Virus record (IMG/VR): IMGVR_UViG_3300032293_001706
Location: 126,553-190,552 of that record
Length of the DNA: 64,000 nt
Direction: 5' to 3' (one strand)
From: a virus
The notes beneath the pieces were generated by a model. The model saw nothing but the letters and a program-made list of their open reading frames with translations, did no database searches and had not been told where the DNA came from. Shown in pieces: positions 28,455-64,000 of this stretch (its first letter is position 1; each line of letters starts with the position of its first letter). The position numbers were made by a program, and so were the translations under genes.

Positions 28455-29654
28455 ATGGAAGAAGAAATTATATTTGAATTGTTAGATGATTTTACATCTG
28501 GTGGGAAGTTATATTATGATGATGAATATAAGTCAATATGGATGATAAATCCAGATACAAAACAATGGATATTTGAATTCAAAAAAACAGGAACTTTATG
28601 GTATTCTTATCCGGTTTTTACCAAAATTTTTAAATACGTTTCGATGGATTATCCTGATTTTAACCCGTATATTAAAAAGTGGGTTGAAAGAATCCTTCAA
28701 AAGGAGGCTAAAAACACCCAATCAATGGGGGGTCAGGAGACATTTTGGGTTGAAAGAATCCTTCAAAAGGAGGTTAAAAACACCATTGAACTTAATGGCT
28801 CAGCCGCCCCAACGGTTGAAAGAATCCTTCAGCAAGATAATAATTTAGACTTAAATGAAAACATTAATGAAAGTGAAGAATCCCCATTAGTTGATGAAGA
28901 AATTATATTTGAATTATTAGATGATTTTACATCTGATGGGAAGCTATATTATGATGATAAAACGGAATCCATATGGATGATAAATCCAGATACAAAAGAA
29001 TGGATATTTGAATTCGAAAAATCAGGAGATTTATGGTATCATTATAAAGTTTTTGAAAGTATTTTTAAATACATTTCGATGGAATATCCTGATTTTGAAC
29101 CATACATAACAAAGTGGGCTGAAAGAATCCTCCAAAAGGAGGTTAAAGACACCGCAAACTCGTATTGGGTGCTGCCGATGGCCGCTGAAAGAATCCTTCA
29201 AAAGGAGATTAAAGACACCATTTTTGTGCAACATCTGCAAAACTCTGGAGTTGAAAGAATCCTTCAACAAGATAATAATTTAGACTTAAATGAAAACATT
29301 AATGATGGCGAAGAACCATCATCAGTTGATGAAGAAATTATATTTGAGTTGTTAGATGATTTTACTAATGATTATGATAAGTATCAATCTTATAATGGAG
29401 ATACTTTTCTTATTAATCCTAATAAGAAAGATTGGTTAATAGAAATAGATGAAGAAAACTATTTATGGTATAACAAAGATATATTTGTAAAAATTTTCAA
29501 ATACGTTTCGATGGAATACCCTGATTTTGAACCATATATAACAAAGTGGGTTGAAAAAAAAATTAACATTAAAATTAAAGAAACTTATGATATTTTCTGG
29601 GGTAGAGGGGGTAAAATAATAGATGTAATTACAAATGGATTTAAAGAAACATAA
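28455..29654 (+). CDS. Three tandem copies of a ~75-aa domain (EEEIIFELLDDF...PDFxPYIxKW), each followed by in-frame repeat/spacer units
   Basis: Internal triplication visible in the translation; modules joined by QDNNLDLNENIN linkers; TATTTAT motif at 28430-28436. Confidence 0.85.
   Translation: MEEEIIFELLDDFTSGGKLYYDDEYKSIWMINPDTKQWIFEFKKTGTLWYSYPVFTKIFKYVSMDYPDFNPYIKKWVERILQKEAKNTQSMGGQETFWVERILQKEVKNTIELNGSAAPTVERILQQDNNLDLNENINESEESPLVDEEIIFELLDDFTSDGKLYYDDKTESIWMINPDTKEWIFEFEKSGDLWYHYKVFESIFKYISMEYPDFEPYITKWAERILQKEVKDTANSYWVLPMAAERILQKEIKDTIFVQHLQNSGVERILQQDNNLDLNENINDGEEPSSVDEEIIFELLDDFTNDYDKYQSYNGDTFLINPNKKDWLIEIDEENYLWYNKDIFVKIFKYVSMEYPDFEPYITKWVEKKINIKIKETYDIFWGRGGKIIDVITNGFKET
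28683..28831. CRISPR. CRISPR-like mini-array A1, in frame within CDS (2 full and 1 partial repeat, 2 spacers)
   Basis: Repeats 28683-718 and 28749-784 (GTTGAAAGAATCCTTCAAAAGGAGG[C/T]TAAAAACACC), partial 28815-831; both spacers exactly 30 nt. Confidence 0.7.
29118..29267. CRISPR. CRISPR-like mini-array A2, in frame within CDS (2 full and 1 partial repeat, 2 spacers)
   Basis: Repeats 29118-153 and 29184-219, partial 29250-267; both spacers 30 nt and unrelated to the A1 spacers. Confidence 0.7.
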
Positions 29655-29665
29655 TGAGAAAAAAA

Positions 29666-29697
29666 GTTGGTTATGTTAAAAAATTGGCCTATATTTG
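29666..29697 (+). promoter_or_regulatory. Bacteroidota sigmaA-type promoter
   Basis: GTTG (29666-69), 20 nt, TATATTTG (29690-97). Confidence 0.65.
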
Positions 29698-29703
29698 TAA
29701 TAG

Positions 29704-29873
29704 GAAATCGATGAAAAAAGTCCAAAGGTTTTGAGGACATAAAAATAAAAAACCTGATTGGAAAGGTTGAAGGTAACCCTCCCAATGAACCCGAAAGAAA
29801 ATCTTCTTAGCAAGTCTACCGCGAACTAGAGTTAGACAAAAAAAGAGGGCCAAAAGTCCTCTTTTTCTTTTTT
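29704..29873 (+). ncRNA. Candidate structured small RNA
   Basis: Lies between a host-type promoter and a terminator; no ORF longer than about 14 codons from an ATG; hairpins at 29720-38, 29758-85 and 29814-37. Confidence 0.35.
29840..29873 (+). terminator. Intrinsic terminator (near-copy of 28394-28425)
   Basis: AAAAAGAGGGC-CAAAA-GTCCTCTTTTT plus T tract; one G-U pair on the plus strand. Confidence 0.8.
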
Positions 29874-29902
29874 GTTATATTTATAAGTAATAAGACCTTT
29901 AA

Positions 29903-30976
29903 ATGGAAGAAGAAATTATATTTGAGTTATTAGATGATTTTACATCTGATGGAAAGTTATATTATGATGATGAATATGACTCCATATGGATGATAAATCC
30001 AAAAACAAAAAAATGGATATTTGAATTCGAAAAATCAGGAAATTTATGGTATTCTTATTCAATTTTTAACAAAATTTTTAAATACGTATCGATGGAATTC
30101 CCTGATTTTGAACCATACATAACAAAGTGGGCTGAAAGAATCCTCCAAAAAGAGGTTAAAGACACCTTTCATGGTCTTCGAAACTTTCCCGCTCCAGTTG
30201 AAAGAATCCTTCAAAAAGAGGTTAAAGACACCCGGATGGACAGCTATACATCAACAGCGGTGGTTGAAAGAATCCTTCAAAAAGAGGTTAAAGACACCTC
30301 ATCCAGTTCGCTTTTCTTAGGGAAGGTGGTTGAAAGAATCCTTCAAAAAGAGGTTAAAGACACCGAACATTTTGAAGAGCGTTTCATTGAAGTGGTTGAA
30401 AGAATCCTTCAAAAAGATAATAGTTTGGATTTAAATGAAAGTTCACCGATTAAATTAATCCAATTATTTAAAGAAGTTTTAATTGAAGGTCAAATAGATG
30501 GAACATTAGTTAATAAAACTTATGATGGTTATAATGTTAAATTTATTTTATCTAAACATGCCGATGAAAGAAGAAATAGAGTTGATAATTATTCAGAAAT
30601 AACATATGAAGAACTAATATCCGCAATTGAGGAAGCAATTCCTAAGATTGTTGATAAAGCGTTTAAAACACATAAACGAAATATTGTAGGACCTGTTAAC
30701 AATGGAATGATATATATTAGAGATAGTAAGACAGGACAATTAAATAAAAAAGACGCTCAAGAGTTTTTCATCTACAAAAAAGAATCAGAATTACAAATTA
30801 AATGTAAGGTTTTAAATTTTGATAAAAATAAGGGTTATATTGAAATTATAATAAAAACTTTAATGAAAAGTCGTACAGATAAATTAAATATGAACGACCC
30901 GAAAAGAAACACCCTGTATTTAAATATTTTTGAAAACATTAATAACTTTGAGAATTATTTTATAATAGAAATATAA
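29903..30976 (+). CDS. ~75-aa domain, in-frame array and C-terminal domain with SxHAxER motif (possible RNase/toxin fold)
   Basis: N-terminus near-identical to module 2 of 28455; C-terminal LSKHADERRNR; TATTTAT motif at 29878-84. Confidence 0.8.
   Translation: MEEEIIFELLDDFTSDGKLYYDDEYDSIWMINPKTKKWIFEFEKSGNLWYSYSIFNKIFKYVSMEFPDFEPYITKWAERILQKEVKDTFHGLRNFPAPVERILQKEVKDTRMDSYTSTAVVERILQKEVKDTSSSSLFLGKVVERILQKEVKDTEHFEERFIEVVERILQKDNSLDLNESSPIKLIQLFKEVLIEGQIDGTLVNKTYDGYNVKFILSKHADERRNRVDNYSEITYEELISAIEEAIPKIVDKAFKTHKRNIVGPVNNGMIYIRDSKTGQLNKKDAQEFFIYKKESELQIKCKVLNFDKNKGYIEIIIKTLMKSRTDKLNMNDPKRNTLYLNIFENINNFENYFIIEI
30131..30417. CRISPR. CRISPR-like array A3, in frame within CDS (4 full and 1 partial repeat, 4 spacers)
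   Basis: Repeats start at 30131, 30197, 30263 and 30329 (GTTGAAAGAATCCTTCAAAAAGAGGTTAAAGACACC), partial 30395-417; strict 66-nt period. Confidence 0.75.
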
Positions 30977-31047
30977 TTATTTACTACTATTTAAATAATG
31001 TTAAATTATTTTTATAGATTTAAGAAATCTGTAAAATTTTTAACAAA

Positions 31048-31656
31048 ATGGATAAAAAAATTGCAAAATTAAAAAATTCCCCAAAAGTGTTGGGACTCGA
31101 CATCAGCACAAAAGTTATCGGATTCGCTTTATTCGACATTCAAAGTAAAAAACTTCTCGAATTAACACACTTTTCGCCTGTAATCAAACCACAACCTGAA
31201 GATAAAATAGAGGAGATGATTTTGAAGGTAAACGCCTTTATCAAAAAACTTCAAGATTACAAAGATATGGGAATTACTAAAGTTATTATTGAGGAACCAT
31301 TGTTAGGTTCAAATAACGTTCATACGGTTGGAACATTAATGAGATATAATGCAATGATAACAAAATCAATACATGATGCATTGAATATCGTGCCAAATTA
31401 TATCTCAACATATAATTCAAGAAAGTATGCTTGGCCACAACTTATGAGTAAAAACGACAAAAATAGGGAAACTCTATTTGGTGGTTATCCTAAAGATATT
31501 GACAAAAAACAAGTGGTTTGGGAACTTGTTTCAAAAGAAGAACCACAAATAGTTTGGTTGTATACGAAAAACATGACATTAAAAAAAGAATGTTTTGACC
31601 AAGCTGACGCATATACCTGTGTCAGGGGGTATATGAAAATGAATTCTTTTTGGTGA
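31048..31656 (+). CDS. RuvC-like Holliday junction resolvase
   Basis: VLGLDISTKVIGFALFD, IIEEP, FDQADAY (RNase H-fold acidic residues). Confidence 0.75.
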   Translation: MDKKIAKLKNSPKVLGLDISTKVIGFALFDIQSKKLLELTHFSPVIKPQPEDKIEEMILKVNAFIKKLQDYKDMGITKVIIEEPLLGSNNVHTVGTLMRYNAMITKSIHDALNIVPNYISTYNSRKYAWPQLMSKNDKNRETLFGGYPKDIDKKQVVWELVSKEEPQIVWLYTKNMTLKKECFDQADAYTCVRGYMKMNSFW

Positions 31657-31692
31657 TTTGATATCAAGATTTTTTTTATTATCTTTCTTAAA

Positions 31693-32616
31693 GTGGAAGA
31701 TAACGCAATTTTAGTTGAACTTATTGAAGGTGTTTTTGGTAAAATAAGGAAACATTACCCAAACCACGGACAATTAAGTGTTGATTGTCCTGTATGTTCA
31801 TATGATATAAAAGGTTTAGATAAACTTGATGGTAAGGGCAACTTAGAGATTAATTATGCGGAGCATGTTTTTAAATGTTGGGCTTGTGGAGAATCAAATA
31901 ACACACAAGGACATTTGGGATATCTTATTGATAGATATGGGAAAAAGAAAGACAAAGACCTATATAAATTAATTAGACCAGATGAATTCATAAGAACAGA
32001 AAAGAAATATGACAAATTAAAACTACCGAAAGATTTCAAATTAGCAACCGACGGGAACAAATATCATATCCCGTTTAGGGAAATGAGGAATTATCTTAAA
32101 AGTAGAGGGATAACAGATGAAATGATTAAAAAACATAACATTGGTTATTCTTTGGAAGGTGAATATGCATTTAGGGTTATCATCCCATCTTATGATAAAA
32201 ATGGGGAATTAAATTATTTTACAGGTAGGTCATGGAATCCAAAATCAAAATTAAAATATAAAAACCCTGAAGCTGAGAAACAAATAGTTATCTTTAATGA
32301 AAATCTAATTGATTGGGAAAAAGACATATATATCTGTGAAGGACCATTCGATTCACTTTTTTTGGAAAACTCAATTGCTCTTCTCGGTAAAAAATTATCT
32401 GATACCTTGTTTACTGAATTGTATGAAAAAACGAAGAAGGATATAATTATTGTTTTGGATTCTGATGCTTGGGAAGATTCCAAAAAAATATACTTTAATT
32501 TAAGTGGCGGAAAATTATATGGGAGAATTAAAGTTGTTAAACTTCCTGAAGGAAAGGACATTGCGGATTTAAGAGGTAATATACTACCTGAATACTTTAT
32601 ACAATTAGAAAAATGA
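31693..32616 (+). CDS. DNA primase (Zn finger plus TOPRIM)
   Basis: CPVC...FKCWAC zinc-binding domain; YLKSRGI; ICEGPFD; IIVLDSD; KDIAD. Confidence 0.85.
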   Translation: MEDNAILVELIEGVFGKIRKHYPNHGQLSVDCPVCSYDIKGLDKLDGKGNLEINYAEHVFKCWACGESNNTQGHLGYLIDRYGKKKDKDLYKLIRPDEFIRTEKKYDKLKLPKDFKLATDGNKYHIPFREMRNYLKSRGITDEMIKKHNIGYSLEGEYAFRVIIPSYDKNGELNYFTGRSWNPKSKLKYKNPEAEKQIVIFNENLIDWEKDIYICEGPFDSLFLENSIALLGKKLSDTLFTELYEKTKKDIIIVLDSDAWEDSKKIYFNLSGGKLYGRIKVVKLPEGKDIADLRGNILPEYFIQLEK

Positions 32617-33395
32617 TGGAAACAATAATAGAATTATCAAAATTTAACGATGTTAAATATTTTGACGGACCACACAAATATTATGTAGGAACAAAAGAAT
32701 ATGTTTCGGCGACAACCTTTATTGGGAAATACAAGGCAAAATTTCAAACACAATTATTGGCTGAAAAATATGCTGAAAAAAGAGGATTAGACGTTAACGA
32801 GGTAATTGCAGAATGGGAATTAAAGAAAGACATATCAACGGTAAAAGGAACTCTTCTTCATAATATGGCTGAGAATTGGTGGAATAATAAATCATTTCCA
32901 TACGATTCATCATTAGTTATTAAAAAATTTGGTTATGACATAATCGAAGAGAACTATAGAAAATGTGAAACAATTTTTCATAGATTTTATGAAGATGCAA
33001 AACAAAATCTAATACCTGTAAAAATGGAATTGGTTGTTTGTGACCATGACTATGAAATTGCCGGAATGGTAGATTGTTTATTCTATAACAAAAAGTCAGG
33101 AATGTTGGAGATTTGGGATTATAAAACAAATAAAGAAATTAAAAGTAGTAACAATTTTGGTAATAAAATGTTACATCCAATTTCCCATCTTGATGAGTGT
33201 GAAATGAATACATATTCACTTCAGTTGGGTTTATATAAACATATTATTCAAAAAAATACAAATTTAAATATTGGTAACTGTTATTTGTTGTGGATAAATG
33301 AAAATAACGATACTTATAAGATATTCACTTGTAAGGATTTATATGCTGAATTAAAATTAATGATAGAAGATTATGAAAATACCAAGAACTCGTAA
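32613..33395 (+). CDS. PD-(D/E)XK (RecB/lambda-exo-like) nuclease
   Basis: GTLLH, IAGMVDCLF, IWDYKT, YSLQLGLY motifs. Confidence 0.8.
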   Translation: MMETIIELSKFNDVKYFDGPHKYYVGTKEYVSATTFIGKYKAKFQTQLLAEKYAEKRGLDVNEVIAEWELKKDISTVKGTLLHNMAENWWNNKSFPYDSSLVIKKFGYDIIEENYRKCETIFHRFYEDAKQNLIPVKMELVVCDHDYEIAGMVDCLFYNKKSGMLEIWDYKTNKEIKSSNNFGNKMLHPISHLDECEMNTYSLQLGLYKHIIQKNTNLNIGNCYLLWINENNDTYKIFTCKDLYAELKLMIEDYENTKNS

Positions 33396-33483
33396 AGCAA
33401 AACTAAAGAAAAAGAAAAAGTATTTTGAAAAGTACACAAAGACATTAAAGAAATATTTAAAGGTTAGATATAATTGGGATTAA
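33373..33483 (+). CDS. 36-aa Lys-rich peptide
   Basis: MKIPRTRKAKLKKKKKYFEKYTKTLKKYLKVRYNWD, translated by hand; overlaps the nuclease stop. Confidence 0.3.
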   Translation: MKIPRTRKAKLKKKKKYFEKYTKTLKKYLKVRYNWD

Positions 33484-33536
33484 TTTATTGATTAAACCCA
33501 ATTAAATTGTTATATTTAATCATCAAAATATATTAA

Positions 33537-34319
33537 ATGATTAAAAAACTCGTACATTTTTCAGATTTACACATTCGTTTATTTAAGGACCATGATTTAT
33601 ATCGCAAAATTATTAGTGATATGTTCTCAGAATTCCGAAAAATAAACCCTGATAGAATTGTTTTCACAGGTGATTTAGTTCACTCCAAAAATCAGATGAC
33701 ACCCGAATTAATTAATATGGTTTCTTGGGTGTTAACTGAATGCTCTAAAATTGCAAAAACAATTTTAATAATTGGAAATCATGATTTTCTTGAGAACAAT
33801 ACCGAAAGATTAGACGCTTTAAGTCCAATTATTGATTCACTAAATAATGACAATATCATATATTTGAAAAATCGTGGGGTTTATTCCGACTCAAATATAG
33901 ATTGGTGTGTTTATTCACTATATGAACATAATCTACCACCTGATATTAATCCTAACTCCACGAACACCAAGATTGGGTTATTTCACGGACCTGTAGTGGG
34001 GCTATCTACGGATATTGGATATAAGTTTGAAGACGGGTTCGATAGTAGTAAATTTTCAGGTTGTGATGTTGTATTATGTGGTGACATCCACAAAAGACAG
34101 ATATTTAACATACCTAATGGAAAAAAGGCGTATATGGTGGGTTCAAGTATACAGCAAAATTTTGGGGAAAAAGTAACCAATCATGGATTCGGAATTTATG
34201 ATGTGTTGGAAGATAAATATGAGTTTGTCGACCTAAAAAACCCAAAACCATTTTTAGTGTTTAAAATCGACGATTACTCTGTCATTGAAACAGGAACTGA
34301 AACGTTAAAAAACTATTAA
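33537..34319 (+). CDS. SbcD/Mre11/gp47-like metallophosphoesterase nuclease subunit
   Basis: HFSDLHI, FTGDLVH, IGNHD, GLFHG, LCGDIH, YMVGSSIQQNFGE. Confidence 0.9.
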   Translation: MIKKLVHFSDLHIRLFKDHDLYRKIISDMFSEFRKINPDRIVFTGDLVHSKNQMTPELINMVSWVLTECSKIAKTILIIGNHDFLENNTERLDALSPIIDSLNNDNIIYLKNRGVYSDSNIDWCVYSLYEHNLPPDINPNSTNTKIGLFHGPVVGLSTDIGYKFEDGFDSSKFSGCDVVLCGDIHKRQIFNIPNGKKAYMVGSSIQQNFGEKVTNHGFGIYDVLEDKYEFVDLKNPKPFLVFKIDDYSVIETGTETLKNY

Positions 34320-34687
34320 TGGAACAACTTATTATTGAACTCAACTCACTTGAATTACAAGAGATAGAAAAATTCTGTGAAATTAATAATTTTAATATCG
34401 ATGAAACTGTTACCAAGTGTTTTAAAAACGGATTTATCATCGAGAAATACGGATTTTTAGGAAAAGAAATTGAAATCCCTGTTGAAAAAATAGAGAATAC
34501 TGATGATGATTTGAAAGTAAAACAATTACAACAGACAATTCAGGATTTAACATTAAAAATTCGTGAAAAAGAAAATGAAATTAAAGAATTGAAAGATACA
34601 ATAAAAAATTTTAATATTAATAACGAAAAAACACAAGTAACGTATTTACGTTCATCAAATTTAGAAGATAATTTATATAAAGATTAA
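34319..34687 (+). CDS. Hypothetical coiled-coil protein
   Basis: Coupled ORF with a heptad-like C-terminal half. Confidence 0.5.
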   Translation: MEQLIIELNSLELQEIEKFCEINNFNIDETVTKCFKNGFIIEKYGFLGKEIEIPVEKIENTDDDLKVKQLQQTIQDLTLKIREKENEIKELKDTIKNFNINNEKTQVTYLRSSNLEDNLYKD

Positions 34688-34693
34688 AAATAT

Positions 34694-35029
34694 ATGTGGT
34701 TAATAATTTGGATTTTAGCGGCTTATGGAATGAGCCAAATTTTAGTGTATGGTTCAATATTTGAATCAACAAGACAAAAAATTCATAAATGGGGGGACAA
34801 CGAATATGCCCCACTACAAGGGATAGGTAAGTTTATATCGGGTTTAATCCAATGCATGATGTGTGTATCTACATGGATTGGATTTTTTATGAGTTTAGTT
34901 CTATTTTCACCAATAGAATATTGTTTTAATGCTCATGTTATAATTTCAACATTTTTTGATGGAATGTTAGCATCAGGTTCAGTATGGGCAGTTAATTCAA
35001 TAATCGAATGGTATGAAGCGAAAAAATAA
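34694..35029 (+). CDS. Small membrane protein with CxxC (DUF1360-like)
   Basis: Three hydrophobic segments; IQCMMCVSTWIG. Confidence 0.55.
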   Translation: MWLIIWILAAYGMSQILVYGSIFESTRQKIHKWGDNEYAPLQGIGKFISGLIQCMMCVSTWIGFFMSLVLFSPIEYCFNAHVIISTFFDGMLASGSVWAVNSIIEWYEAKK

Positions 35030-35043
35030 TAAATTTTAATAAT

Positions 35044-35250
35044 ATGCCAGTATCTAGAAACAGAAAAAATCAGAAGAAAAAAGCTGCTCAACGCACTAAA
35101 ACACAGAAACAACAAGTAAAGAAAATACAAGACTTGTATACACAAAAAATGGTTGAAAAACTAAAAGAAATGCATGAAGAATATGTAGAAAACTCAGGTA
35201 AAACTGAAAATGATGGATTTATTCAACCCACCGATAATACCGAACTATAA
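35044..35250 (+). CDS. Small basic hypothetical protein
   Basis: MPVSRNRKNQKKK N-terminus. Confidence 0.5.
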   Translation: MPVSRNRKNQKKKAAQRTKTQKQQVKKIQDLYTQKMVEKLKEMHEEYVENSGKTENDGFIQPTDNTEL

Positions 35251-35815
35251 TTTTATGACACATAATTTAGATATAACTTCTTTAGAAAACCCATACATAC
35301 AAGTGGTGTGGGAAGACACTGCGGAAAATTTTACACAAGAAAGAATTAAAAGTGTTAGAAGTTATTTCTCCAAAAAATATAATTCAACAAATGTAAATGT
35401 TTTAACTAAGGTAAAAACGACTGATGATGTTCAACAAACAGTTGACGTGTCCGTAAATATTATGGATAGGAATTATCAGTTGGAGTTGGTTAAAGAAGTG
35501 TTGAAACAAAGAGGACAGGAAAAACTTTTAGATGATATTTTGGAATTGGATAAATTCGTTGACTCAAAAATGTCATCAGATGAAGTTCAAGCATTTAAAA
35601 AGTGGTATATTAAAAAAATAGAGTTCAGCAACTTTTTATCTTATGGTGAGAATCAAGTATTAGATTTTGAAAAATGTAATGGTATCACTGTAGTTGAGTC
35701 GAATCCCCCTAATTTTGGTGGAAAATGTATTAGGTATAATACAAAAATTGATATAGAGTATGATTTAGATTTTATTATTAAAAAATTAGGTTTTATACCT
35801 GATGAATTAAAATAA
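35210..35815 (+). CDS. SbcC/Rad50/gp46 N-terminal fragment fused to 29-aa split-intein N fragment
   Basis: IKKIEFSNFLSYG...ESNPPNFGGK (Walker A) followed by C-IRYNTKIDIEY (intein block A, Cys at 35726). Confidence 0.85.
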   Translation: MMDLFNPPIIPNYNFMTHNLDITSLENPYIQVVWEDTAENFTQERIKSVRSYFSKKYNSTNVNVLTKVKTTDDVQQTVDVSVNIMDRNYQLELVKEVLKQRGQEKLLDDILELDKFVDSKMSSDEVQAFKKWYIKKIEFSNFLSYGENQVLDFEKCNGITVVESNPPNFGGKCIRYNTKIDIEYDLDFIIKKLGFIPDELK

Positions 35816-35836
35816 TAAAACCAAATACTTTTTAAT

Positions 35837-36871
35837 TTGATGGAAATATTTATATGTTATATGAATAAAAAATATAATTTTAGTAATGAAGAAATTAACG
35901 ATATGATAAAAAAATATGTTGATGAACTAAAACCAATATCGTTAATTGCAAAAAACTACAATGTAGACCCATCAGTTATTAAAAAAAGATTAAAAGACTC
36001 AGGAATAAAAATAGTGAAAGGTTCCGCATTTAATATTAAATTTTGGTTGGAGAAAGGATTGTCACTTGATGAGGCCAAAGAAAAAATTAAAATAATAAAA
36101 CCAAGTTTAATTGAATATTGGTTACACAAAGGGTATTCATTAGAAGAATCTAAATTCCAAACTGAATTACATTTAATGAATACAGAAAGGGCTTATATTC
36201 ATAAATATGGCGAAGATGAAGGTAAAAAATTATTCTTCTTGAAGAAAGAAAAGGAAGGTAAATACCATTCACCTAGAAGAATTGAATATTGGATTAAAAA
36301 TGGTTATTCAATTGAGGAATCAAGACAAAAAATAAAAGACAATCAAAATAAATTTAGTCTTGAAAAATGTATTCAAAATAATGGGTTCGATGAAGGATTA
36401 AATATTTTTACAAGAAGACAGATTAAATGGCAAGAAACACTTGTAAAAAATGGTAATCTTAAAAAAGGTTTTTCTAAAATATCACAAGAATTATTTTACA
36501 TTTTAATGGAAAAATACGATATTAATGAAAGAAGGATGATTAATTTTGCAACACATAATGGCGAATATAAATTAAAAAATCCTGAAGGTGGCGTTTTTAT
36601 TTATGATTTTACCGATTTAATAAATAATAAGATTATTGAGTATCATGGGGATATGTATCACGCTAACCCTAAAAAATATAAAAAAGACGATTATCCTCAT
36701 CCATTTAGAAAAACTCTTAATTCACAACAAATATGGAATAAAGATGAAAAAAAAATAAAAGAAGCTAATAACAATAATTTTGATGTTTTAATAATTTGGG
36801 ATTCCGAATATAGATGGGGAAATAAAAATAAAATAGTTGAAAAATGTCTTAATTTTTTAAATAAAAAATGA
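35837..36871 (+). mobile_element. Free-standing Vsr-like homing endonuclease between the split-intein halves
   Basis: C-terminal YDF...KIIEYHGDMYHANP...IWNKD.KK...VLIIWDSEY; repeated W.xxGYS.EE. modules upstream. Confidence 0.8.
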
Positions 36872-54988: not shown

Positions 54989-54989
54989 A

Positions 54990-55304: not shown

Positions 55305-55594
55305 TGAAAAAAATTTTTTTATTTACAATGAAAGGATGTCCACATTGTTTGGATTTAAAAGAAATGTTATATGATGAAGATATTGATTTTGTTGAAAAAG
55401 ACATTGATGAAAATGATTCTGAATATGAAGAATTTAAGTCCATTGTTGACGGAAATGAATATGTACCAGCATTTCTATGTGTCAAAATAGACCAAAATAA
55501 AATTGAAGACTATGCAGCTTTAGTTCCCGAAAGAGATTTTCAGGAACTAAGCGAAGCGGTTGAAATGGTTAAGAATTTCTTAACCAAAGATTAA
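55304..55594 (+). CDS. Glutaredoxin-like protein
   Basis: FTMKGCPHC, YVPAF. Confidence 0.8.
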   Translation: MKKIFLFTMKGCPHCLDLKEMLYDEDIDFVEKDIDENDSEYEEFKSIVDGNEYVPAFLCVKIDQNKIEDYAALVPERDFQELSEAVEMVKNFLTKD

Positions 55595-56457: not shown

Positions 56458-56487
56458 GTGAAAATATTAAAAAATAAATATCATTAG

Positions 56488-57525
56488 TTAAATATTATCT
56501 TTAAAATATTCATTATAATTTGAAACAACTTCAGACCAAGATGGGCTTGTATTATCTAAGTATACACGTAAACCTTCATATGTGTCTTTTATAAAAGTAT
56601 CTAATCTACCATGATAATCAAGTAATTCATTTGAATCCTCCATTTTCCCTAAATAAGAACTAATAGAGTCTTTAACCATATTATCAAAAACATTTGTAAT
56701 ATTTACACCATATTCATAGTTGTTAACTTTTTCACCATTTTTTAAAGTTTTTGTTTTTGTAAAATTTTCGTATAAAGGTTCATCTCTAGATAAAAGTAAA
56801 AATTTTCTAATGACATTAGTTACTAAACTATAGTATTCATCTGAAAGGGCCGATTCGTAAGCCTGATTATATAAAGAGTTCAAATCAACTTTTAAGTCAT
56901 TAAATTCATCACAATTTTTTATTAAATCGTAAATCTCTTTAGATTCAACTATCTTATTTAACCTATCAGTGGTCAGTATAAACGTATTATCGTCATTATC
57001 AGACTCAATAAAATCAAGTATAACTCCACTACTACCATTATAATATAATTCTTTATTAAGACCATTTTCTTTAATTATTTCAATGAGTTTTTTAAAGTTA
57101 TCATTAGATAAATCATCTATTATTGATGACTCATAATTTTCATAATAAAAACCATAATCTAAATTACCTTCTAATATATTTCTAATAAATTCTTCACTGG
57201 CACTATTTCTTGAACTGCTAAATAAATCGGATAAATCACCAATTTCACTTAACATTAAATAATATTTATTATTCTCGTATTTAACATCAGGTAATTGTTC
57301 CGCAAAAAAGTTAAGAACATCCTTTATTGATTTTTCTTTAATCCAAAAATCAAAATATTCGTTAGGTAAAAGGTCAATCATCGAATCATCTAAATGTTCG
57401 CCACTAATAATACCCTCATCAATTAGATGATTGAAAAAAATATCAAAATGTTTGAAGAAGTACTTACTAATTATATCTGTTAGTTCATCACGGTCTCCAT
57501 TACTTATTATTTCTTCTAAATCCAT
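56488..57525 (-). CDS. Acidic hypothetical protein
   Basis: 345-aa ORF; TATTTAT motif on the minus strand at 57530-36. Confidence 0.6.
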   Translation of the reverse strand: MDLEEIISNGDRDELTDIISKYFFKHFDIFFNHLIDEGIISGEHLDDSMIDLLPNEYFDFWIKEKSIKDVLNFFAEQLPDVKYENNKYYLMLSEIGDLSDLFSSSRNSASEEFIRNILEGNLDYGFYYENYESSIIDDLSNDNFKKLIEIIKENGLNKELYYNGSSGVILDFIESDNDDNTFILTTDRLNKIVESKEIYDLIKNCDEFNDLKVDLNSLYNQAYESALSDEYYSLVTNVIRKFLLLSRDEPLYENFTKTKTLKNGEKVNNYEYGVNITNVFDNMVKDSISSYLGKMEDSNELLDYHGRLDTFIKDTYEGLRVYLDNTSPSWSEVVSNYNEYFKDNI

Positions 57526-57540
57526 ATTAATAAATATAAA

Positions 57541-57562
57541 AAAAGGGGAAAAATCCCCTTTT
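57541..57562. terminator. Hairpin, likely bidirectional intrinsic terminator
   Basis: AAAAGGGGA-AAAA-TCCCCTTTT. Confidence 0.7.
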
Positions 57563-57583
57563 AATCCAACACTAAAGATAAAT

Positions 57584-57709
57584 TTATTTTTTAACAGTTT
57601 TTTGGTAATACTTCTGAACTGTTTTTTTAACAGCGTTTACAACTGATTCATTAGTTGTTTGAACTGGTTGTGTTGGTTGTTGAGGTTTTTTGCATCCGCA
57701 TCCTGACAT
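57584..57709 (-). CDS. 41-aa MSGCGCK peptide
   Basis: MSGCGCKKPQQPTQPVQ...VKK, translated by hand; TATTTAT on the minus strand at 57739-45. Confidence 0.55.
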   Translation of the reverse strand: MSGCGCKKPQQPTQPVQTTNESVVNAVKKTVQKYYQKTVKK

Positions 57710-57800
57710 AATTGTAGTTTTTAAATTAGTTTATTATTATAAATATGTGAATAATGTATAAATATAGAAACGATAGTATATTTATAAATAAAATAAAGAA

Positions 57801-59588
57801 ATGAGTCTATTGCAAATATTAACAGAAGGTAGAAAAGAAGATTTTGTTGCAAGGTTTTCAAAAAAATTTAATGAAACTCAATTACAACAAATAATTAACG
57901 TTTCTGAATCATTACCAGGACAAAACAAGTATTTAAATTTTATTGGTAACGTAGTTAACCCTAATAATTTTGACACTGATATGTCTAAATTAGAAAGTTT
58001 ATTAGAAAGATTTTCAACAATAGGTCCTAACTTACCAATAAAAGATATCAACCAATATAAAACAATAGAACAGTTAAAAAATGTTATAGACGAATATAAC
58101 AATAAAATAAGAAGAGAGGTAAAAAGTGATGAGCAATCTGATTTAGTATATGAAGATGACGATATGGTTGTAATTCAACCAAAAACTTATGAGGCGTCTT
58201 GTAAATATGGTGCTGGTACAAAATGGTGTACGACCTCAACCAAATCCCATTTTGATAATCATAATAAAAATGGTAAATTATTTTATTTCATTGATAAAAA
58301 GAAACCAACATCAGACCCACTTTATAAAGTGGCGTTATATTACACTTTTGATGATAATATGAAGTTTTATAATGCAACTGATGACGTTATAAAATCAGGT
58401 TGGATTTTTGGTTCAAAAAAGTTAAAAAATATTTTGGATAGAGTGGTTGTATATATTCAAACAAATTTTGGTGAAGAGTATGAACGAATAAGAGAAGAAA
58501 ATAGAATCCGTCGTGAAGAAGAAGCTCGTAAAATGAGGGAAAGAATGGCAGAACAACAACAAAGGAGAGAAGAAGATTTGTGGAAATTACCAACTGACGA
58601 TGAGGAGGCTCTCAAAGCAAATGCGTTATTTAAATTTCTTGTCACTGAAAATAATATTGATTATATGACAGATGAAGAAAAACAAAGGTTACGTGATTTA
58701 AAACAAGAATTAGAAAGATTACAAGAAATATATAATGAAACTGAAAACGCAGATGAAAACACTGATTTAGTGTCGAATATTGAAGTAATTGAGAATGAAA
58801 TAAATGAACTTGAAGAAAAAATAGATGTTTATTATTTAATACCTGAACAGTATCCACATTATGGATTACAAATGTTTGATTATAACGATGAACAATGGGT
58901 GGTAGGAACTGAAGATGAATTTGATGAAGCCGCTTATGAATCTGCTAAATCATTGATAGATGAACTTGGGATTGAATCATTTAATTCATCATTTGTTGAA
59001 GGACATATAGACGATAAAAAAGTTAAAGATTATATTAAAGATTTTTTCTATGATATGGTATATGAAGAACCTAGTGCTTATTTAGATGATAGTGATAGAG
59101 AACTAAGTAAATCTCAGATGAGAGAAATTAACGAACTTCAAAAAGAAAAAACTACTCTCCAAGTAAAGATTAAAATGTTAGAACAAGAAAAAAAACAATT
59201 AAACATGGAAGAAGATACTTGGGAAGTAGACTATGATGAAATGAATGATAATATAACCGAGATGGAAGATAGAATTTCAGAAATTGAAGATGAAATTGAA
59301 AGTATAACATCTAACCCAGAAGGGGACTTTTCAGATGAAAAAATTGAAGGAGAAATAGAATCTCAAGTAGATTATTATGGTGGAAATGCAAAAAACTTCT
59401 ATGACAATTTTTGGGGTGATAATGATTTTACAAAATGGATGGTAAATAACAGGTTAATAGACATTGAAAGTTTAATTAAAGACTACATAGAATCAGATGG
59501 ATATGGTAATGTTTTAAGTAGTTATGATGGGGATTACTATACAGAAGAAATTGAAAACGTTAATTATTACATTATAAGAGTTAATTAA
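57801..59588 (+). CDS. Hypothetical protein with 'WCT' domain and acidic coiled coils
   Basis: PKTYEASCKYGAGTKWCT...LFYFID, paralogous to part of 52332; TATTTAT at 57779-85. Confidence 0.6.
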   Translation: MSLLQILTEGRKEDFVARFSKKFNETQLQQIINVSESLPGQNKYLNFIGNVVNPNNFDTDMSKLESLLERFSTIGPNLPIKDINQYKTIEQLKNVIDEYNNKIRREVKSDEQSDLVYEDDDMVVIQPKTYEASCKYGAGTKWCTTSTKSHFDNHNKNGKLFYFIDKKKPTSDPLYKVALYYTFDDNMKFYNATDDVIKSGWIFGSKKLKNILDRVVVYIQTNFGEEYERIREENRIRREEEARKMRERMAEQQQRREEDLWKLPTDDEEALKANALFKFLVTENNIDYMTDEEKQRLRDLKQELERLQEIYNETENADENTDLVSNIEVIENEINELEEKIDVYYLIPEQYPHYGLQMFDYNDEQWVVGTEDEFDEAAYESAKSLIDELGIESFNSSFVEGHIDDKKVKDYIKDFFYDMVYEEPSAYLDDSDRELSKSQMREINELQKEKTTLQVKIKMLEQEKKQLNMEEDTWEVDYDEMNDNITEMEDRISEIEDEIESITSNPEGDFSDEKIEGEIESQVDYYGGNAKNFYDNFWGDNDFTKWMVNNRLIDIESLIKDYIESDGYGNVLSSYDGDYYTEEIENVNYYIIRVN

Positions 59589-59598
59589 AAAAAAAAAT

Positions 59599-60330
59599 AT
59601 GAATACAAATTGGATGTTATGTGAACCGATTGATTTTGAATATCAAGAATATAAGATGATGGCGTATTTTCAAAAAGTTAGTAATGATTTGGATAACTTT
59701 AAATTATATCCACACTTTAGAGATATTTCATTAAACTACGCAAATTTTTCAAATTTAAAATCAAAGGACAAATATATAAAATTAATTAGTAAATTAGATG
59801 ATATTGATGAGGAAATTTTAATTACTGATTTAGAATATTATGACGTACCACAAATGTCACCAAAAGATTATTCTGAATACAGAACAATAATAGATTTCGG
59901 AGAATCAAAATTTAAAGACTATTTTTTAATCGCCAAATCAATTTGGACGATAATATATGAATCACTTTGGATTGATGTACTTGAAAATGAAAACGAATTA
60001 AAACGAGGAAAAGGATTCTTATTCTTTCAATATGGGGATATTAATTATCTATACAGGTACGAGAAAAAGAAATTAAAAAGAAATAAAAAAGAGACAAAAA
60101 TAGTTTTAACTCCAATCAAAATATCTGCTGATAATTTAAATATTAGTGACTTAATATCGGAAGACAAATATGAAATAAAAAAACCAGGACATCCAATATT
60201 TTTTATTAAAATTAGAAAAAACACAGAAAATATTGTTCCTTTAAATGAAACAATATTACCTCTTATTAAAAGAAGAATTGCAACTTTTCAAACCAAAGAA
60301 ACACAAAAAAAAGGACAGTTTTATAACTGA
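59599..60330 (+). CDS. Hypothetical protein
   Basis: N-terminal W..EPIDFEYQEYKMMAYFQKV. Confidence 0.6.
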   Translation: MNTNWMLCEPIDFEYQEYKMMAYFQKVSNDLDNFKLYPHFRDISLNYANFSNLKSKDKYIKLISKLDDIDEEILITDLEYYDVPQMSPKDYSEYRTIIDFGESKFKDYFLIAKSIWTIIYESLWIDVLENENELKRGKGFLFFQYGDINYLYRYEKKKLKRNKKETKIVLTPIKISADNLNISDLISEDKYEIKKPGHPIFFIKIRKNTENIVPLNETILPLIKRRIATFQTKETQKKGQFYN

Positions 60331-60367
60331 TTTGTTTTTTTAAAATCTTTTGCATAGATTTGTAGTT

Positions 60368-60970
60368 ATGAAAGCTCTTTTTTTGGACCATGATGGTGTT
60401 ATTTGTCTCAGAGACCAATGGGGAAGTAGATTTAAAAAGGAAACGAAGCTTAGAGAAAAGACAGGAATATCAAGAAATTTGAGTTCACCTGACTATGTAC
60501 TGCCTGTTGATTGTAGATTTGATAATTTTGATAAAAAGGCAATCAAAATCCTTAATAAAATTTTGGAAGTAACAGATGTTGAAATTGTTGTATCTTCAGA
60601 TTGGAAAAATTGGGCAAATGTTGAAGAAATGGGGGAATATTACCTATCACAAGGTATTATTAAAAAACCAATCGCATTTACACCAAGGCTGAGTGAATGT
60701 ACCAATTATGATAATGAAACATTTCCTTGGAGCCGTCAATGGGACTTGGAACAAAGTCGTTCACTTGAAATCAAACAATATCTTCAAAATAACCCACAAG
60801 TAACACATTGGGTTGCGGTAGATGATTTGAATATGGGTAAAACAGGAATGAGTTACAGCATAAAGTTTGAACATGATTGGGGACTTGATAATTTTGTCCA
60901 TACACCACTTTCAAATGAAGGAATTAAACAAAGTGGGGTAAAAGAAAAAATAATTAATTTCTTGATGTAA
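60368..60970 (+). CDS. HAD-superfamily (Swiss-army-knife-type) phosphatase
   Basis: FLDHDGV, IVVSSDW, SLEIKQYL, WVAVDDL; ATG start chosen at 60368. Confidence 0.8.
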   Translation: MKALFLDHDGVICLRDQWGSRFKKETKLREKTGISRNLSSPDYVLPVDCRFDNFDKKAIKILNKILEVTDVEIVVSSDWKNWANVEEMGEYYLSQGIIKKPIAFTPRLSECTNYDNETFPWSRQWDLEQSRSLEIKQYLQNNPQVTHWVAVDDLNMGKTGMSYSIKFEHDWGLDNFVHTPLSNEGIKQSGVKEKIINFLM

Positions 60971-61008
60971 TATTGATAAAAAAATAATTAAAACCTATAA
61001 TTTAAAAT

Positions 61009-61182
61009 ATGAAGACAATTAGGAATAAAAAAACAGGAGAACTAAAACGTCTAAACGACAGAGAAGCCCACAAAATGATTGTAACAACTTATTTAGGTTG
61101 GGAGTATGTACCAAAACAGATTTGGAAAAATGAAACAAGAACAGAATCTGTTAAAAAGAATAATCCCAAACTTAAAAAATAA
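61009..61182 (+). CDS. 57-aa hypothetical protein
   Basis: MKTIRNKKTGELKRLND.EA....GWEYVPKQIWK, translated by hand. Confidence 0.55.
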   Translation: MKTIRNKKTGELKRLNDREAHKMIVTTYLGWEYVPKQIWKNETRTESVKKNNPKLKK

Positions 61183-61183
61183 T

Positions 61184-61375
61184 ATGAATCAGAAAGAGGA
61201 AAAACTTTTGATGTCGAAATTAAGGAGTCCTCTCCATATTAGTTACATTGCACATATTCTCAAATGTGACATTGAAAAAGCGACTGAAATTATTCAAGAA
61301 TTGGAAAAAAACGATATTGTTGTTGAATACAACAGAGAAGTTGCAAAAGGATATTACGTAATAAAAAATAAATAA
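61184..61375 (+). CDS. Small winged-HTH-like protein
   Basis: HISYIAHILKCDIEKATEIIQELEKNDIV..GYY pattern. Confidence 0.45.
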   Translation: MNQKEEKLLMSKLRSPLHISYIAHILKCDIEKATEIIQELEKNDIVVEYNREVAKGYYVIKNK

Positions 61376-61376
61376 T

Positions 61377-62570
61377 ATGAAAGTTTTTTTAGAATATATT
61401 TGGTTGGATGGTTATAAACCAGAACCAAATCTTAGAAGTAAGGTAAAAGTAATTGACCATAATCAATATAATATTAAATTAGATGATTGTCCCGAATGGT
61501 CATTTGATGGTTCATCGACAAAACAAGCGGAAGGACATTTTTCAGATTGCATTTTAAAACCTGTTAAAATTTATCCAAACCCATTAAACACTAGCAAAAA
61601 ACCATCATTTTTTGTTTTTTGTGAAGTTATGAATCCAGACGGAACACCGCATAGTTCAAATACAAGGGCATCAATTAGGTCAACGGTTCCATTATCAGAC
61701 TCATTTGAAAAAATAACACCGAGCAGTTCAAACGAAGGAGAATTAATCAGTGAAGAAGATGAAGATTTATGGTTTGGGTTTGAACAGGAATATACAATTA
61801 TTAAAGATGGTAGACCACTTGGTTTTCCGATTAATGGGTATCCTGAACCGCAAGGAAAATATTATTGTGGTGTTGGAAACGGACAGGTAAATGGACGTGA
61901 ATTTGTTCAAAAACATATGGAATATTGTATTGGTGCAGGAATTGACATTACAGGAACAAATGCGGAAGTTCTTTTGGGACAATGGGAATACCAAGTTTTT
62001 TCAAAAGGTAAATTGAAAGCTGGTGACGACCTTTGGATTTCTAGATATATTCTACAACAAATGTCCGAAGATTATGGTTTTACCATTGAGTTCCATCCAA
62101 AACCTGTAAGCGGAGACTGGAATGGCTCTGGTCTACACTGCAATTTTTCAAATGGGAAAATGAGGGATATTGGTGGGGAAGAATACTTCAAAAGTATATT
62201 TTCTACTTTTGATTCAAGACATATAGAACACATTGAAAATTATGGTTCAGATAATAACCTAAGATTGACTGGAAAGCATGAAACACAATCAATTGACAAG
62301 TTTAGTTGGGGAATTTCTGACAGAGGAGCATCCATAAGAGTTCCTTTAAGTACCTCAAAAGAATGGAAAGGATATGTCGAAGATAGAAGGCCAGCATCAA
62401 ATGCAGACCCTTATAGAATTATTAAGGTGATTTCCGAATCTCTAAAACTTTCAGAAACAACCAATAATGTTAGACATATGATGTATGCTAATGTTAATCT
62501 TGATGACATTACAAACAAATATGGTATGATTTCAAATGAAGAACTTTTAAAAGATTATATTAATGACTAA
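61377..62570 (+). CDS. glnII: Glutamine synthetase type II
   Basis: EYIWLDG, WSFDGSST, GFEQEY, NAEV..GQWEYQ, HPKP..GDWNGSG.H.N, RLTG.HET, DRGASIRVP, EDRRPASN. Confidence 0.93.
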   Translation: MKVFLEYIWLDGYKPEPNLRSKVKVIDHNQYNIKLDDCPEWSFDGSSTKQAEGHFSDCILKPVKIYPNPLNTSKKPSFFVFCEVMNPDGTPHSSNTRASIRSTVPLSDSFEKITPSSSNEGELISEEDEDLWFGFEQEYTIIKDGRPLGFPINGYPEPQGKYYCGVGNGQVNGREFVQKHMEYCIGAGIDITGTNAEVLLGQWEYQVFSKGKLKAGDDLWISRYILQQMSEDYGFTIEFHPKPVSGDWNGSGLHCNFSNGKMRDIGGEEYFKSIFSTFDSRHIEHIENYGSDNNLRLTGKHETQSIDKFSWGISDRGASIRVPLSTSKEWKGYVEDRRPASNADPYRIIKVISESLKLSETTNNVRHMMYANVNLDDITNKYGMISNEELLKDYIND

Positions 62571-62733
62571 TTCAGAGAATACAGAAAAGTGTATCAATTG
62601 TGGAATAGACACCGAAATACCAATAAGACAAAATATCGATTTAAGATATGGATATGTTGAAGGTGCGGGTCAATTATGTTCAGAGTGTTTTAAAAAAATC
62701 TACAAAAAAGTAACGGAACAAAATAATGATTAA
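62563..62733 (+). CDS. 56-aa Zn-ribbon protein
   Basis: CINCG...YVEGAGQLCSEC, translated by hand. Confidence 0.6.
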   Translation: MTNSENTEKCINCGIDTEIPIRQNIDLRYGYVEGAGQLCSECFKKIYKKVTEQNND

Positions 62734-63217
62734 TTCTAAGACAAAAAGAATAATTTTGGTTGGAAAAGCGGCTTCAGGTAAAGATTTTTTAAGAAAAAAG
62801 TTTGAGAGTCGTGGTTTCACATTTGGTGTTAGTTACACAACAAGACCAAAAAGAAAGGGTGAAGAGGAAGGAAAAGATTATTATTTCTTAACTGAAGAAG
62901 AATCAAATAAAATGATTGAAGATGGGTTATTTTATGAATGTATATACTTTAATGGATGGTTATATGGTACAACCAAAGAACAGTTCTATCGTGACGATTT
63001 ATTCATTATGACACCAAAAGGGATATCTAAAATCAAACCTGAAGATAGAGAGAGTTCTTTTATTATTTATACTGATATAGATAGACAAACACGAATGAAT
63101 CGTTTATCAGAAAGAGAAATGCCTGGAGATAGTTTATTAAGAAGAATAGACGCTGATGAAATTGATTTTATGGATTTTAATGATTATGATATGAGAATCA
63201 CAAATCCTAATTTTTAA
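62726..63217 (+). CDS. gmk: Guanylate kinase-like protein
   Basis: GKAASGK P-loop, SYTTRPKR.GE..G.DYYF, YGT. Confidence 0.85.
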   Translation: MINSKTKRIILVGKAASGKDFLRKKFESRGFTFGVSYTTRPKRKGEEEGKDYYFLTEEESNKMIEDGLFYECIYFNGWLYGTTKEQFYRDDLFIMTPKGISKIKPEDRESSFIIYTDIDRQTRMNRLSEREMPGDSLLRRIDADEIDFMDFNDYDMRITNPNF

Positions 63218-63218
63218 A

Positions 63219-64000
63219 ATGGAAAAACAAATAATATTAGAATTTCTTAATGACTTCACAAAAGGTTATGATATATATCATCATAATGGTTCCATGTGGT
63301 TTATTTTAACCGAAGATAGAAAGTGGTTAATAGAATTAGATAAAAAAGGAACTTTGTGGTATAACTATCATTTTTTTTCGGGTATTTTTAGGTATGTAGC
63401 AATGGAATACCCTGATTTTACACCATATATAACAAAGTGGGTTGAAGACACCATTCAAAATGGGGTTAAGAACACCTACTTGCCGTTCAGGTTTTCCACG
63501 AAGCGAGTTGAAGACACCATTCAAAATGGGGTTAAGAACACCCACCAAACCAGTGGGTGCCGTGAAATTGGAGTTGAAGACACCATTCAAAATGGGGTTA
63601 AGAACACCGTTTGTGGTGAGCGATTCGCAGCAGGGAATGTTGAAGACACCATTCAAAATGGGGTTAAGAACACCAGAAATAAAAACTACGAGCCTGAAGG
63701 TTACGTTGAAGACACCATTCAAAATGGGGTTAAGAACACCTATTCAGACGTGATATATCACGTCTCCTACGTTGAAGACACCATTCAAAATGGGGTTAAG
63801 AACACCTATTTTGACTTCGAAAAACCCCTGCAGGAAGTTGAAGACACCATTCAAAATGGGGTTAAGAACACCCATTGCGTAGCGTCGTCCGTAGGTGATG
63901 GCGTTGAAGACACCATTCAAAATGGGGTTAAGAACACCAGTGCGTTTAAATTTGCAATAATGAACGCAGTTGAAGACACCATTCAAAATGGGGTTAAGAA
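63219..64000 (+). CDS. ~74-aa conserved domain fused in frame to the CRISPR-like array (3' truncated; absent from ORF track)
   Basis: ATG 63219, MEKQIILEFLNDF...MEYPDFTPYITKW, then (VEDTIQNGVKNT + 10 variable aa)n with no stop to the window end. Confidence 0.85.
   Translation, partial: MEKQIILEFLNDFTKGYDIYHHNGSMWFILTEDRKWLIELDKKGTLWYNYHFFSGIFRYVAMEYPDFTPYITKWVEDTIQNGVKNTYLPFRFSTKRVEDTIQNGVKNTHQTSGCREIGVEDTIQNGVKNTVCGERFAAGNVEDTIQNGVKNTRNKNYEPEGYVEDTIQNGVKNTYSDVIYHVSYVEDTIQNGVKNTYFDFEKPLQEVEDTIQNGVKNTHCVASSVGDGVEDTIQNGVKNTSAFKFAIMNAVEDTIQNGVK
63441..64000. CRISPR. CRISPR-like array B: at least 9 identical 36-nt repeats and 8 unique 30-nt spacers
   Basis: GTTGAAGACACCATTCAAAATGGGGTTAAGAACACC at 63441, 63507, 63573, 63639, 63705, 63771, 63837, 63903 and 63969 (cut by the window edge). 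Confidence 0.85.

Follow-up and report, generated by a model that had tools for sequence, protein, structure and literature searches.

The repeats of this phage locus raise the question of why a hairpin at their center persists while the residues that it encodes change. The window analyzed here is a stretch of 64,000 nt (positions 126,553-190,552 of IMGVR_UViG_3300032293_001706; coordinates below are window positions) from a T4-like lake jumbo phage, which is represented in IMG/VR by a 190 kb contig that is ~63% complete. A sequence-only reading had noted that two 36-nt repeat types, denoted as A and B, differ by changes that keep a central stem, and had proposed selection on nucleic-acid structure, probably in a minus-strand RNA antisense to the gene.

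Compensatory changes in the central stem

Of the 36 repeat positions, 9 distinguish type A from type B (7, 8, 9, 11, 13, 21, 23, 30, and 31). Comparing the two types, we confirmed two compensatory pairs in a 5-bp stem, where pair 11-23 is C-G in type B and T-A in type A, and pair 13-21 is A-T and C-G, respectively. The stem is CCATT-CAA-AATGG in type B and TCCTT-CAA-AAGGA in type A, and the encoded residues are TIQNG and ILQKE, as had been reported.

63451..63463, + strand: central hairpin of the type B repeat, CCATT-CAA-AATGG, at repeat positions 11-23; it recurs every 66 nt
29128..29142, + strand: type A repeat carrying T15C, which in an alternative register forms a perfect CCTCC-AAAA-GGAGG stem (-7.7 kcal/mol, z -1.9)

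The plus-strand hairpin of type B folds at -6.9 kcal/mol (z -0.97). All four stem changes between the types are non-synonymous, and two of them fall on the most conserved residues of the family, Asn7 (92%) and Gly8 (97%), with base complementarity kept. The variants T15C (at 29118 and 30131) and G21A (at 30131-30329) were both present. They had been described as breaking the pairing on the plus strand while becoming G-U wobbles on the minus strand, which is correct in the register originally considered; in type A, however, the repeat can also pair in a second register (CCTTC-AAAA-GGAGG), where T15C makes the plus-strand stem perfect.

In random null models of the four stem substitutions, a 5-bp Watson-Crick stem in the same register was retained with P = 0.005 and any central Watson-Crick stem of at least 5 bp with P = 0.06-0.10. 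With G-U pairs allowed, P was 0.32-0.39, and by folding energy 0.26-0.31. The chance level of stem retention depends on the test chosen. Several alternative registers exist in this pyrimidine-run/purine-run sequence, so some stem is easier to keep by chance.

Translated arrays behind a conserved N-terminal domain

The repeats alternate with spacers of 30 nt, and these arrays lie in frame after an N-terminal domain (N-domain) of ~74-75 residues in five paralogous genes; the N-domain itself has 11 paralogous copies within the phage genome.

63219..63440, + strand: N-domain of the type B gene (74 residues by translation), ending in ...PDFTPYITKW, in the position of a CRISPR leader
63441..64000, + strand: type B array, in which eight 30-nt spacers separate nine identical 36-nt repeats, the last of them truncated at the contig end
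28455..29654, + strand: gene with three N-domain modules, the first two with a type A mini-array each and the third with none
29903..30976, + strand: single gene in which a type A array follows an N-domain and precedes an unrelated C-terminal domain

The type B array holds eight exact copies at 63441-63938 and a ninth that starts at 63969, and each unit translates in frame to VEDTIQNGVKNT and 10 variable residues. Type A is present as eight copies with one to three mismatches (at 28683, 28749, 29118, 29184, 30131, 30197, 30263, and 30329), and its canonical sequence occurs four further times in the genome at 19499-19732. Each mini-array of the three-module gene comprises two repeats, two spacers, and a truncated terminal repeat, and the gene at 29903..30976 has the four repeats from 30131 to 30329, four spacers, and a truncated repeat at 30395. 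P0100 represents a further repeat type, VEDILKTGVRHI.

Each of the genome's 26 spacers has a length of exactly 30 nt, a layout that conforms to CRISPR arrays in general. Their GC content is 45.8%, compared with 30% for the genome, and they contain no stop codon in the gene frame versus 6-17 in the other five frames; shuffling gave an expectation of 14.4 stops, and 0 of 20,000 shuffles was stop-free. The lack of stops is best explained by translation of the arrays as 22-residue units of a phage protein. Across the family, spacers resemble one another no more than random pairs do (27.9% identity), and their peptides show the abundance of Ser, Leu, and Arg expected from random translation. A diversity-generating retroelement was considered as a source of the variable segments and rejected, because these segments do not exhibit template-like similarity.

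The arrays are also polar, with truncated terminal repeats and a decay that rises with distance from the N-domain (83 arrays). Mismatches to the master repeat number 3.6-4.3 beside the N-domain versus 8-10 distally (rho 0.39), and the share of perfect stems drops from 0.60-0.75 to 0.2-0.3 over the same course. Older repeats have lost the stem and retained the peptide.

Spacers copied from a host chromosome

Eight phage spacers have counterparts in a single Bacteroidota genome bin (G002), with 27-30 of 30 bases identical and five of the matches complete (30/30), as expected of copied protospacers; six of these eight belong to the eight spacers of the type B array.

63477..63506, + strand: type B spacer 1, a 30/30 copy of a bacterial chromosome segment
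63609..63968, + strand: type B spacers 3-8; against G002, spacers 3, 4, and 6 match at 30/30, spacer 5 at 29/30, and spacer 8 at 27/30, and spacer 7 has no match
30167..30196, + strand: first spacer of the type A array with G21A, 30/30 in G002 and 29/30 in G001

A 26-mer of type B spacer 1 is exact in two bins, one of an uncultured Flavobacteriaceae and one of Bacteroidota. Judged from these matches, the host named by the spacers is a freshwater Bacteroidota lineage. No PAM was visible in the flanks of the eight protospacers, and comparison of the spacers with cultured phages gave no significant match.

Comparison with known CRISPR systems

The sequence-only reading recognized the structure of the repeats and did not name them as CRISPR-type. 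Hairpins with compensatory stem changes are established in CRISPR repeats (Kunin, Sorek and Hugenholtz 2007, PMC1896005), and the phage repeats resemble those clusters in being short direct repeats with a central stem-loop, whose types differ by paired changes that keep the stem. They differ in that the phage repeats are codons of a translated gene, old copies decay in the DNA, and no cas genes were found nearby. Huge phages are known to carry CRISPR arrays without Cas1/Cas2, with some spacers matching the host chromosome (Al-Shayeb et al. 2020, PMC7162821), and the arrays here are likewise phage-borne, without an acquisition module, and equipped with spacers that match host genes. While those arrays were described as non-coding guides, the present ones lie in frame behind a conserved domain and avoid stops, and their repeats are conserved as peptide with drifting synonymous sites. 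In Flavobacterium columnare, arrays are filled in trans by the Cas1-Cas2 of a type II-C system (Hoikkala et al. 2021, PMC8092290). That system and the type II-C array of a genome from the host's family (G042) have 36-nt repeats and 30-nt spacers, as in the phage. The repeat of G042 (GTTGAAG...CACAAC) shares only its ends with type B (GTTGAAG...AACACC), whereas its middle is unrelated and lacks the central hairpin.

Cas1/Cas2 were found neither in the 190-kb contig, at its ~63% completeness, nor in two host bins, and ten large ORFs outside the window (591-998 residues) had no Cas match in Pfam or PADLOC. No CRISPR-DR family of Rfam matched either repeat, a scan of bacterial genome contigs for the repeat gave no match, and the master repeat was absent at up to 3 mismatches from 125 genomes of the host's family. 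The arrays were also compared with two known types. For type VI-B (Cas13b), the 36/30-nt lengths and the 5' end GTTG fit, but the 3' end is CACC instead of CAAC, and spacer orientation to target transcripts is not consistent (relative to the host gene, taken as the longest frame over each match, six of the eight spacers with a match are sense and two antisense). For type II-C, blastn-short searches of the incomplete contig with both repeats gave no sign of an anti-repeat (tracrRNA): outside the arrays, complementary matches reached 15 nt at most and did not rise above chance level.

Since the repeats belong to in-frame, CRISPR-style arrays that store exact 30-base copies of host DNA, the hairpin is most likely a CRISPR-repeat palindrome and not part of an antisense RNA. 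Paired changes that maintain a hairpin are what a working CRISPR repeat usually shows, and finding them within translated phage genes argues for assembly of the arrays by a CRISPR-type reaction and against ordinary protein repeats.

The stem in the wider repeat family

The main alternative is that structure is not selected at all, and that the palindrome simply follows from the peptide motif (Thr-Ile-Gln-Asn-Gly, ACC ATT CAA AAT GGG) and from single-base descent, with the compensated pairs arising by chance. The looser nulls and the energy-based null above agree with this explanation, while the same-register test does not. Among 597 type-B-like repeats there was neither a compensated T-A at 11-23 nor a C-G at 13-21: T21 accompanies C13 in ten cases and G21 in none, and A23 is found opposite C11 in four cases and opposite T11 in none. 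RNAalifold found no consensus structure in 144 repeats. Folding z-scores of single repeats are ordinary, only -0.7 to -2.0, and the counts exceeding those of shuffles derive from one lineage, both of which count against stem selection. Furthermore, the stem decays in old repeats where the peptide stays, type C has no stable stem, and the G21A variant, which is active as judged by its 30/30 spacer, folds at only -3.0 kcal/mol. For type A, an argument from codon choice is circular, because its rare codons follow from single-base steps off type B.

Several observations speak against chance. Thr at stem position 12 is encoded by ACC in 85% of cases, compared with 66% for Thr at codon 12. In an unrelated phage (L187), the C-G to T-A double change at 11-23 has arisen independently, at the otherwise 97% conserved Gly. 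Its two leader-proximal repeats are identical, carry T11-A23, and are accompanied by fresh GC-rich spacers, and its N-domain is nested deep among those of type B, separate from type A (branch support 99/98). In type D, the stem is restored by a shifted register (CCCTT-AAAA-GAGGG, -8.8 kcal/mol), and types A and D have both given up the nearly invariant Asn in ways that restore pairing. Compensated changes total three, with pair 11-23 changed in two independent lineages and pair 13-21 in one. A perfect stem is present in 18 of 21 repeat sequences found as identical adjacent copies versus 282 of 597 unique repeats, and repeats of recent duplication are free to vary at positions 5-9 and 24-33, whereas changes in their stem are almost always compensated. 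Searching IMG/VR with the type A peptide pattern gave only single matches, probably due to chance, and patterns requiring C13 gave no further type A, only isolated type-B-like units (Ile to Leu) and type D.

Type A and L187 show what is expected of structured CRISPR repeats, a stem kept by compensatory changes between related types, with moderate statistical support. Taken together, the earlier proposal of selection beyond coding is plausible in that conserved residues changed while pairing was kept, with L187 and type D pointing the same way, and it is weakened by the missing RNAalifold consensus and the ordinary energies; these sequence comparisons give moderate support for selection on the hairpin. 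We consider the absence of such selection possible, on balance rather doubtful.

We give about an even chance to the explanation in which the hairpin forms the palindromic center of CRISPR-type repeats in translated arrays that capture host DNA, with the stem maintained only in the propagated copy. The arrays would grow at the N-domain end by capturing exact pieces of the host chromosome. Selection at the nucleic-acid level would act on the stem only in the copy that each acquisition passes on, whereas older copies would drift, with just the peptide motif retained. More tentatively, the hairpin may be the recognition element of a spacer-capture reaction by which phages write host DNA into their own proteins, each capture adding one 22-residue unit with a new 10-residue segment. 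If so, the compensatory changes would mean that nucleic-acid structure, not the peptide, defines the repeat, and the arrays would represent a device derived from CRISPR adaptation for varying a protein.

The molecule under constraint

With the hairpin taken as a CRISPR-type palindrome, the constrained molecule may be the double-stranded repeat seen by a spacer-integrating enzyme or a plus-strand transcript bound by a Cas-type protein, and we lean slightly toward the former. In either case, the hairpin gives experimenters a precise handle on whether spacer capture or RNA binding depends on structure.

A stem acting in the mRNA is improbable. Such a hairpin every 66 nt would pace ribosomes or stabilize the message while the 22-residue units fold, which suits arrays that are under selection for translation, the better folding of the plus strand in types B, D, and A with T15C, and the U-G intermediates on the path from C-G to T-A, which are common on this strand. 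However, older units lose the stem and are still part of the protein, and 5-bp stems are weak obstacles to ribosomes.

The minus-strand antisense RNA originally proposed is unsupported and very improbable, since T15C strengthens the plus-strand stem and the lowest-energy minus-strand fold of type A uses another stem, with that of type B reaching only -4.3 kcal/mol (z +0.27). In its favor, G21A leaves a C-A mismatch on the plus strand but a G-U wobble on the minus strand, whichever of the two registers is used, and the type II-C arrays of F. columnare are transcribed from within repeats toward the leader (PMC8092290), so array transcripts need not start in the leader. Nevertheless, two transitions fall on the expected strand by chance one time in four. 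The common single-sided variants of the type B family are plus-strand wobbles (T11-G23, 152; T12-G22, 115), counts that are confounded by the Gly codon and AT pressure, and single-sided variants among the 597 repeats track coding constraint and AT pressure with no strand preference.

The array-bearing protein family

Searching public proteins with an N-domain profile gave 439 cluster representatives, and the translated-array family is present in more than 119 IMG/VR contigs. The N-domain was absent from the cultured phages searched, where the repeat part matched only weakly, to WNxIK repeats of tape-measure proteins. A related-locus search of IMG/VR with the N-domain gave no confirmed relative, and a word-index protein search recovered only the window's own paralog. 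In AlphaFold2 models, pLDDT was 81-91 for residues 1-80, covering the N-domain, and only 38-56 for the repeat part. This low-pLDDT repeat model aligned in VIA-align with Z of about 11 to pectate lyases and phage tailspikes, which raises the question of a right-handed parallel β-helix with stacked strands and ~22 residues per coil. In contigs from other runs, the type B array terminates in ...QNGVKNND-stop just past the window and is followed by another paralog. Contigs of other runs over the type B array break up at the repeats.

Translated repeat arrays carry host DNA

The window makes up the final 64 kb of its source contig from IMG/VR. This contig is linear, 190,552 bp in length with 30% GC and ~63% complete by CheckV, and belongs to a T4-like phage with a Gp20 portal, a Gp23 capsid protein, a T4-type terminase and a family B DNA polymerase. 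A SprB-repeat protein, a Gly/Ser/Thr-rich tandem repeat and Thr-Pro-rich repeats are encoded at window 1719-3839, 9307-9758 and 22263-23473, in line with a Bacteroidota host. Two insert-bearing genes are located outside the window (genome 27976-30972 and 80801-83704): the portal gene, containing an intein splicing domain, and the second, a SNF2 helicase with a LAGLIDADG/Hint insert.

All type A and type B repeats are in frame and lie within five paralogous genes. A 75-aa N-terminal domain (N-domain, 11 copies) with the C-terminal end ...PYITKW precedes every array, and a truncated repeat closes each one. Type A occurs eight times in the window and at two more loci elsewhere in the genome, and type B is positioned as follows:

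63441-63938: type B repeat, eight exact copies plus a ninth truncated at the contig end, period 66 nt

In contigs of other runs that align at 63997, the type B array terminates just past the window end as ...QNGVKNND-stop, and a paralog starting MEEQII directly follows, so the type B gene is made up of just the N-domain and its array, with such genes placed in tandem.

Every one of the 26 spacers is 30 nt long, and their GC content is 45.8%. Stop codons are absent from the spacers in the gene frame, compared with 6-17 per frame in the remaining five; 14.4 were expected from shuffles, and every one of the 20000 shuffles contained a stop. Two genome bins, one from an uncultured Flavobacteriaceae and one from a Bacteroidota, contain an exact match to a 26-mer from the first type B spacer. 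When the whole type B array was searched by BLAST against both bins, six spacers matched the bin G002: four over 30/30 bases, one over 29/30 and one over 27/30. A 30/30 match was likewise obtained for the leading spacer of the array that starts at 30131. The protospacers lie in ordinary genes in both orientations, and no PAM was visible around the matches. Based on the stop-free 30-nt spacers and the host-genome matches, the arrays are CRISPR-style stores of host DNA that are translated as protein.

Paired changes in the repeat hairpin

The differences between the two repeat types, A and B, fall at positions 7, 8, 9, 11, 13, 21, 23, 30 and 31, and, as the sequence-only reading described, two pairs are compensatory (11-23 from C-G to T-A, 13-21 from A-T to C-G), retaining a 5-bp stem with the loop CAA. 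Each of the four stem changes is non-synonymous, and TIQNG becomes ILQKE in the peptide. The residues sacrificed are Asn7 and Gly8, the best conserved in the family, and pairing is exactly preserved. A same-register test of stem retention gave P = 0.005. A perfect stem is seen in 18 of the 21 repeat sequences found as identical neighbouring copies, a set in which positions 5-9 and 24-33 show free variation. L187 is an unrelated lake contig whose two youngest repeats share a single sequence with T11-A23 (VEDIIQNEVRST), and the spacers after them are GC-rich. Since the N-domain of the L187 gene falls deep within the type B clade and well away from type A, the change from C-G to T-A at 11-23 arose at least two times. 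Type D (VEDTLKRGVKDT), present in two contigs, forms the shifted-register stem CCCTT-AAAA-GAGGG at -8.8 kcal/mol. We give real selection on the hairpin at the nucleic-acid level about an even chance.

Chance combined with ancestry, with no structural selection, is a possible though rather doubtful explanation. Against selection on the stem, looser null models gave P = 0.06-0.39, folding z-scores were a mere -0.7 to -2.0, and RNAalifold predicted no structure on 144 repeats. Pair counts above shuffles all came from the type A lineage, and three pairs were changed on both sides, no more than in shuffles (253 of 500). Among 597 type-B-like repeats, C13 was never found with G21, nor A23 with T11. 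Moreover, the active G21A variant folds weakly and type C lacks the stem.

The molecule possibly under constraint

Young repeats have an intact stem, whereas old repeats have lost it and still encode the peptide, which favors a constraint on the copy duplicated at each acquisition; a role of the stem at the mRNA level is improbable. The constrained molecule would be the repeat that the integrating enzyme acts on or, possibly, the nascent transcript. The repeats adjacent to the N-domain at 29118-29153 and 30131-30166 (GCTG...CCTCC) are two bases off from the identical repeats downstream, a pattern that copying the first repeat with every acquisition would not produce; the N-domain module may have undergone gene conversion extending into these first repeats.

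The T15C and G21A variants are present as reported, but T15C, which had been taken to break the plus-strand stem, turns U-G into C-G in the register CCTTC-AAAA-GGAGG and gives a perfect plus-strand stem at -7.7 kcal/mol. A hairpin in a minus-strand antisense RNA, as had been proposed, is very unlikely, given this effect of T15C, type A minus-strand folds that favour another stem, an unremarkable type B minus-strand fold and single-sided variants that show no strand bias and track the Gly codon and AT pressure.

Comparison with known CRISPR systems

Stems retained through compensatory changes are known in CRISPR repeats (PMC1896005), as are phage arrays without Cas1/Cas2 whose spacers match the host (PMC7162821). 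Unlike in those systems, the repeats here serve as codons in a family of translated genes, and the stem is kept only by propagating copies. Cas1, Cas2, an effector and an anti-repeat were not found in the incomplete (~63%) phage contig, nor was Cas1 in either of the host bins, both incomplete. In G042, a genome from the same family as the host, a type II-C locus (C14:90000-103000) comprises a Cas9-like gene, Cas1, Cas2 and an array whose 39 repeats are 36 nt long and separated by 30-nt spacers. The repeat of this locus starts with GTTGAAG and ends with CACAAC, resembling the phage repeat ends, but lacks the central stem of the phage repeats. The locus fits capture in trans, as demonstrated experimentally in Flavobacterium columnare (PMC8092290), and leaves the hairpin unexplained.

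The family in other phages

A degenerate DNA pattern for EDTIQNGVK matched in more than 119 IMG/VR contigs, and an N-domain profile matched 439 cluster representatives. Twelve repeat residues are conserved while the synonymous sites of their codons drift, as in Val9 (95%; GTG/GTA/GTT) and Gly8 (97%; GGG/GGT/GGA). Repeats next to the N-domain are nearest to the master sequence and distal ones are decayed. In 442 unique units, the spacers share 27.9% identity, no greater than random pairs, and encode peptides with many Ser, Leu and Arg residues. A low-confidence structural model suggests that each 22-residue unit could form one beta-helix coil. Some ten-residue cassettes (such as SPESIEDSFA, ELHKGVRPLA and EDGDWLDGDER) recur across phages (L110, L139, L142, L004, L006 and others), so units would be inherited or exchanged between arrays.

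A 37-nt stretch of a microvirus DNA pilot protein gene (PQ007143.1, 2713-2749) matches the type B repeat at 91.5% identity (E 0.2), probably by chance. TIQNGVK, the constant segment of the unit, is similar to 11-residue WNxIK repeats found in the tape-measure proteins of phages of Gram-positive bacteria (tblastn E down to 1e-10), for example in the tape-measure gene of Bacillus phage PBC1 (L150), and this resemblance may be convergence.
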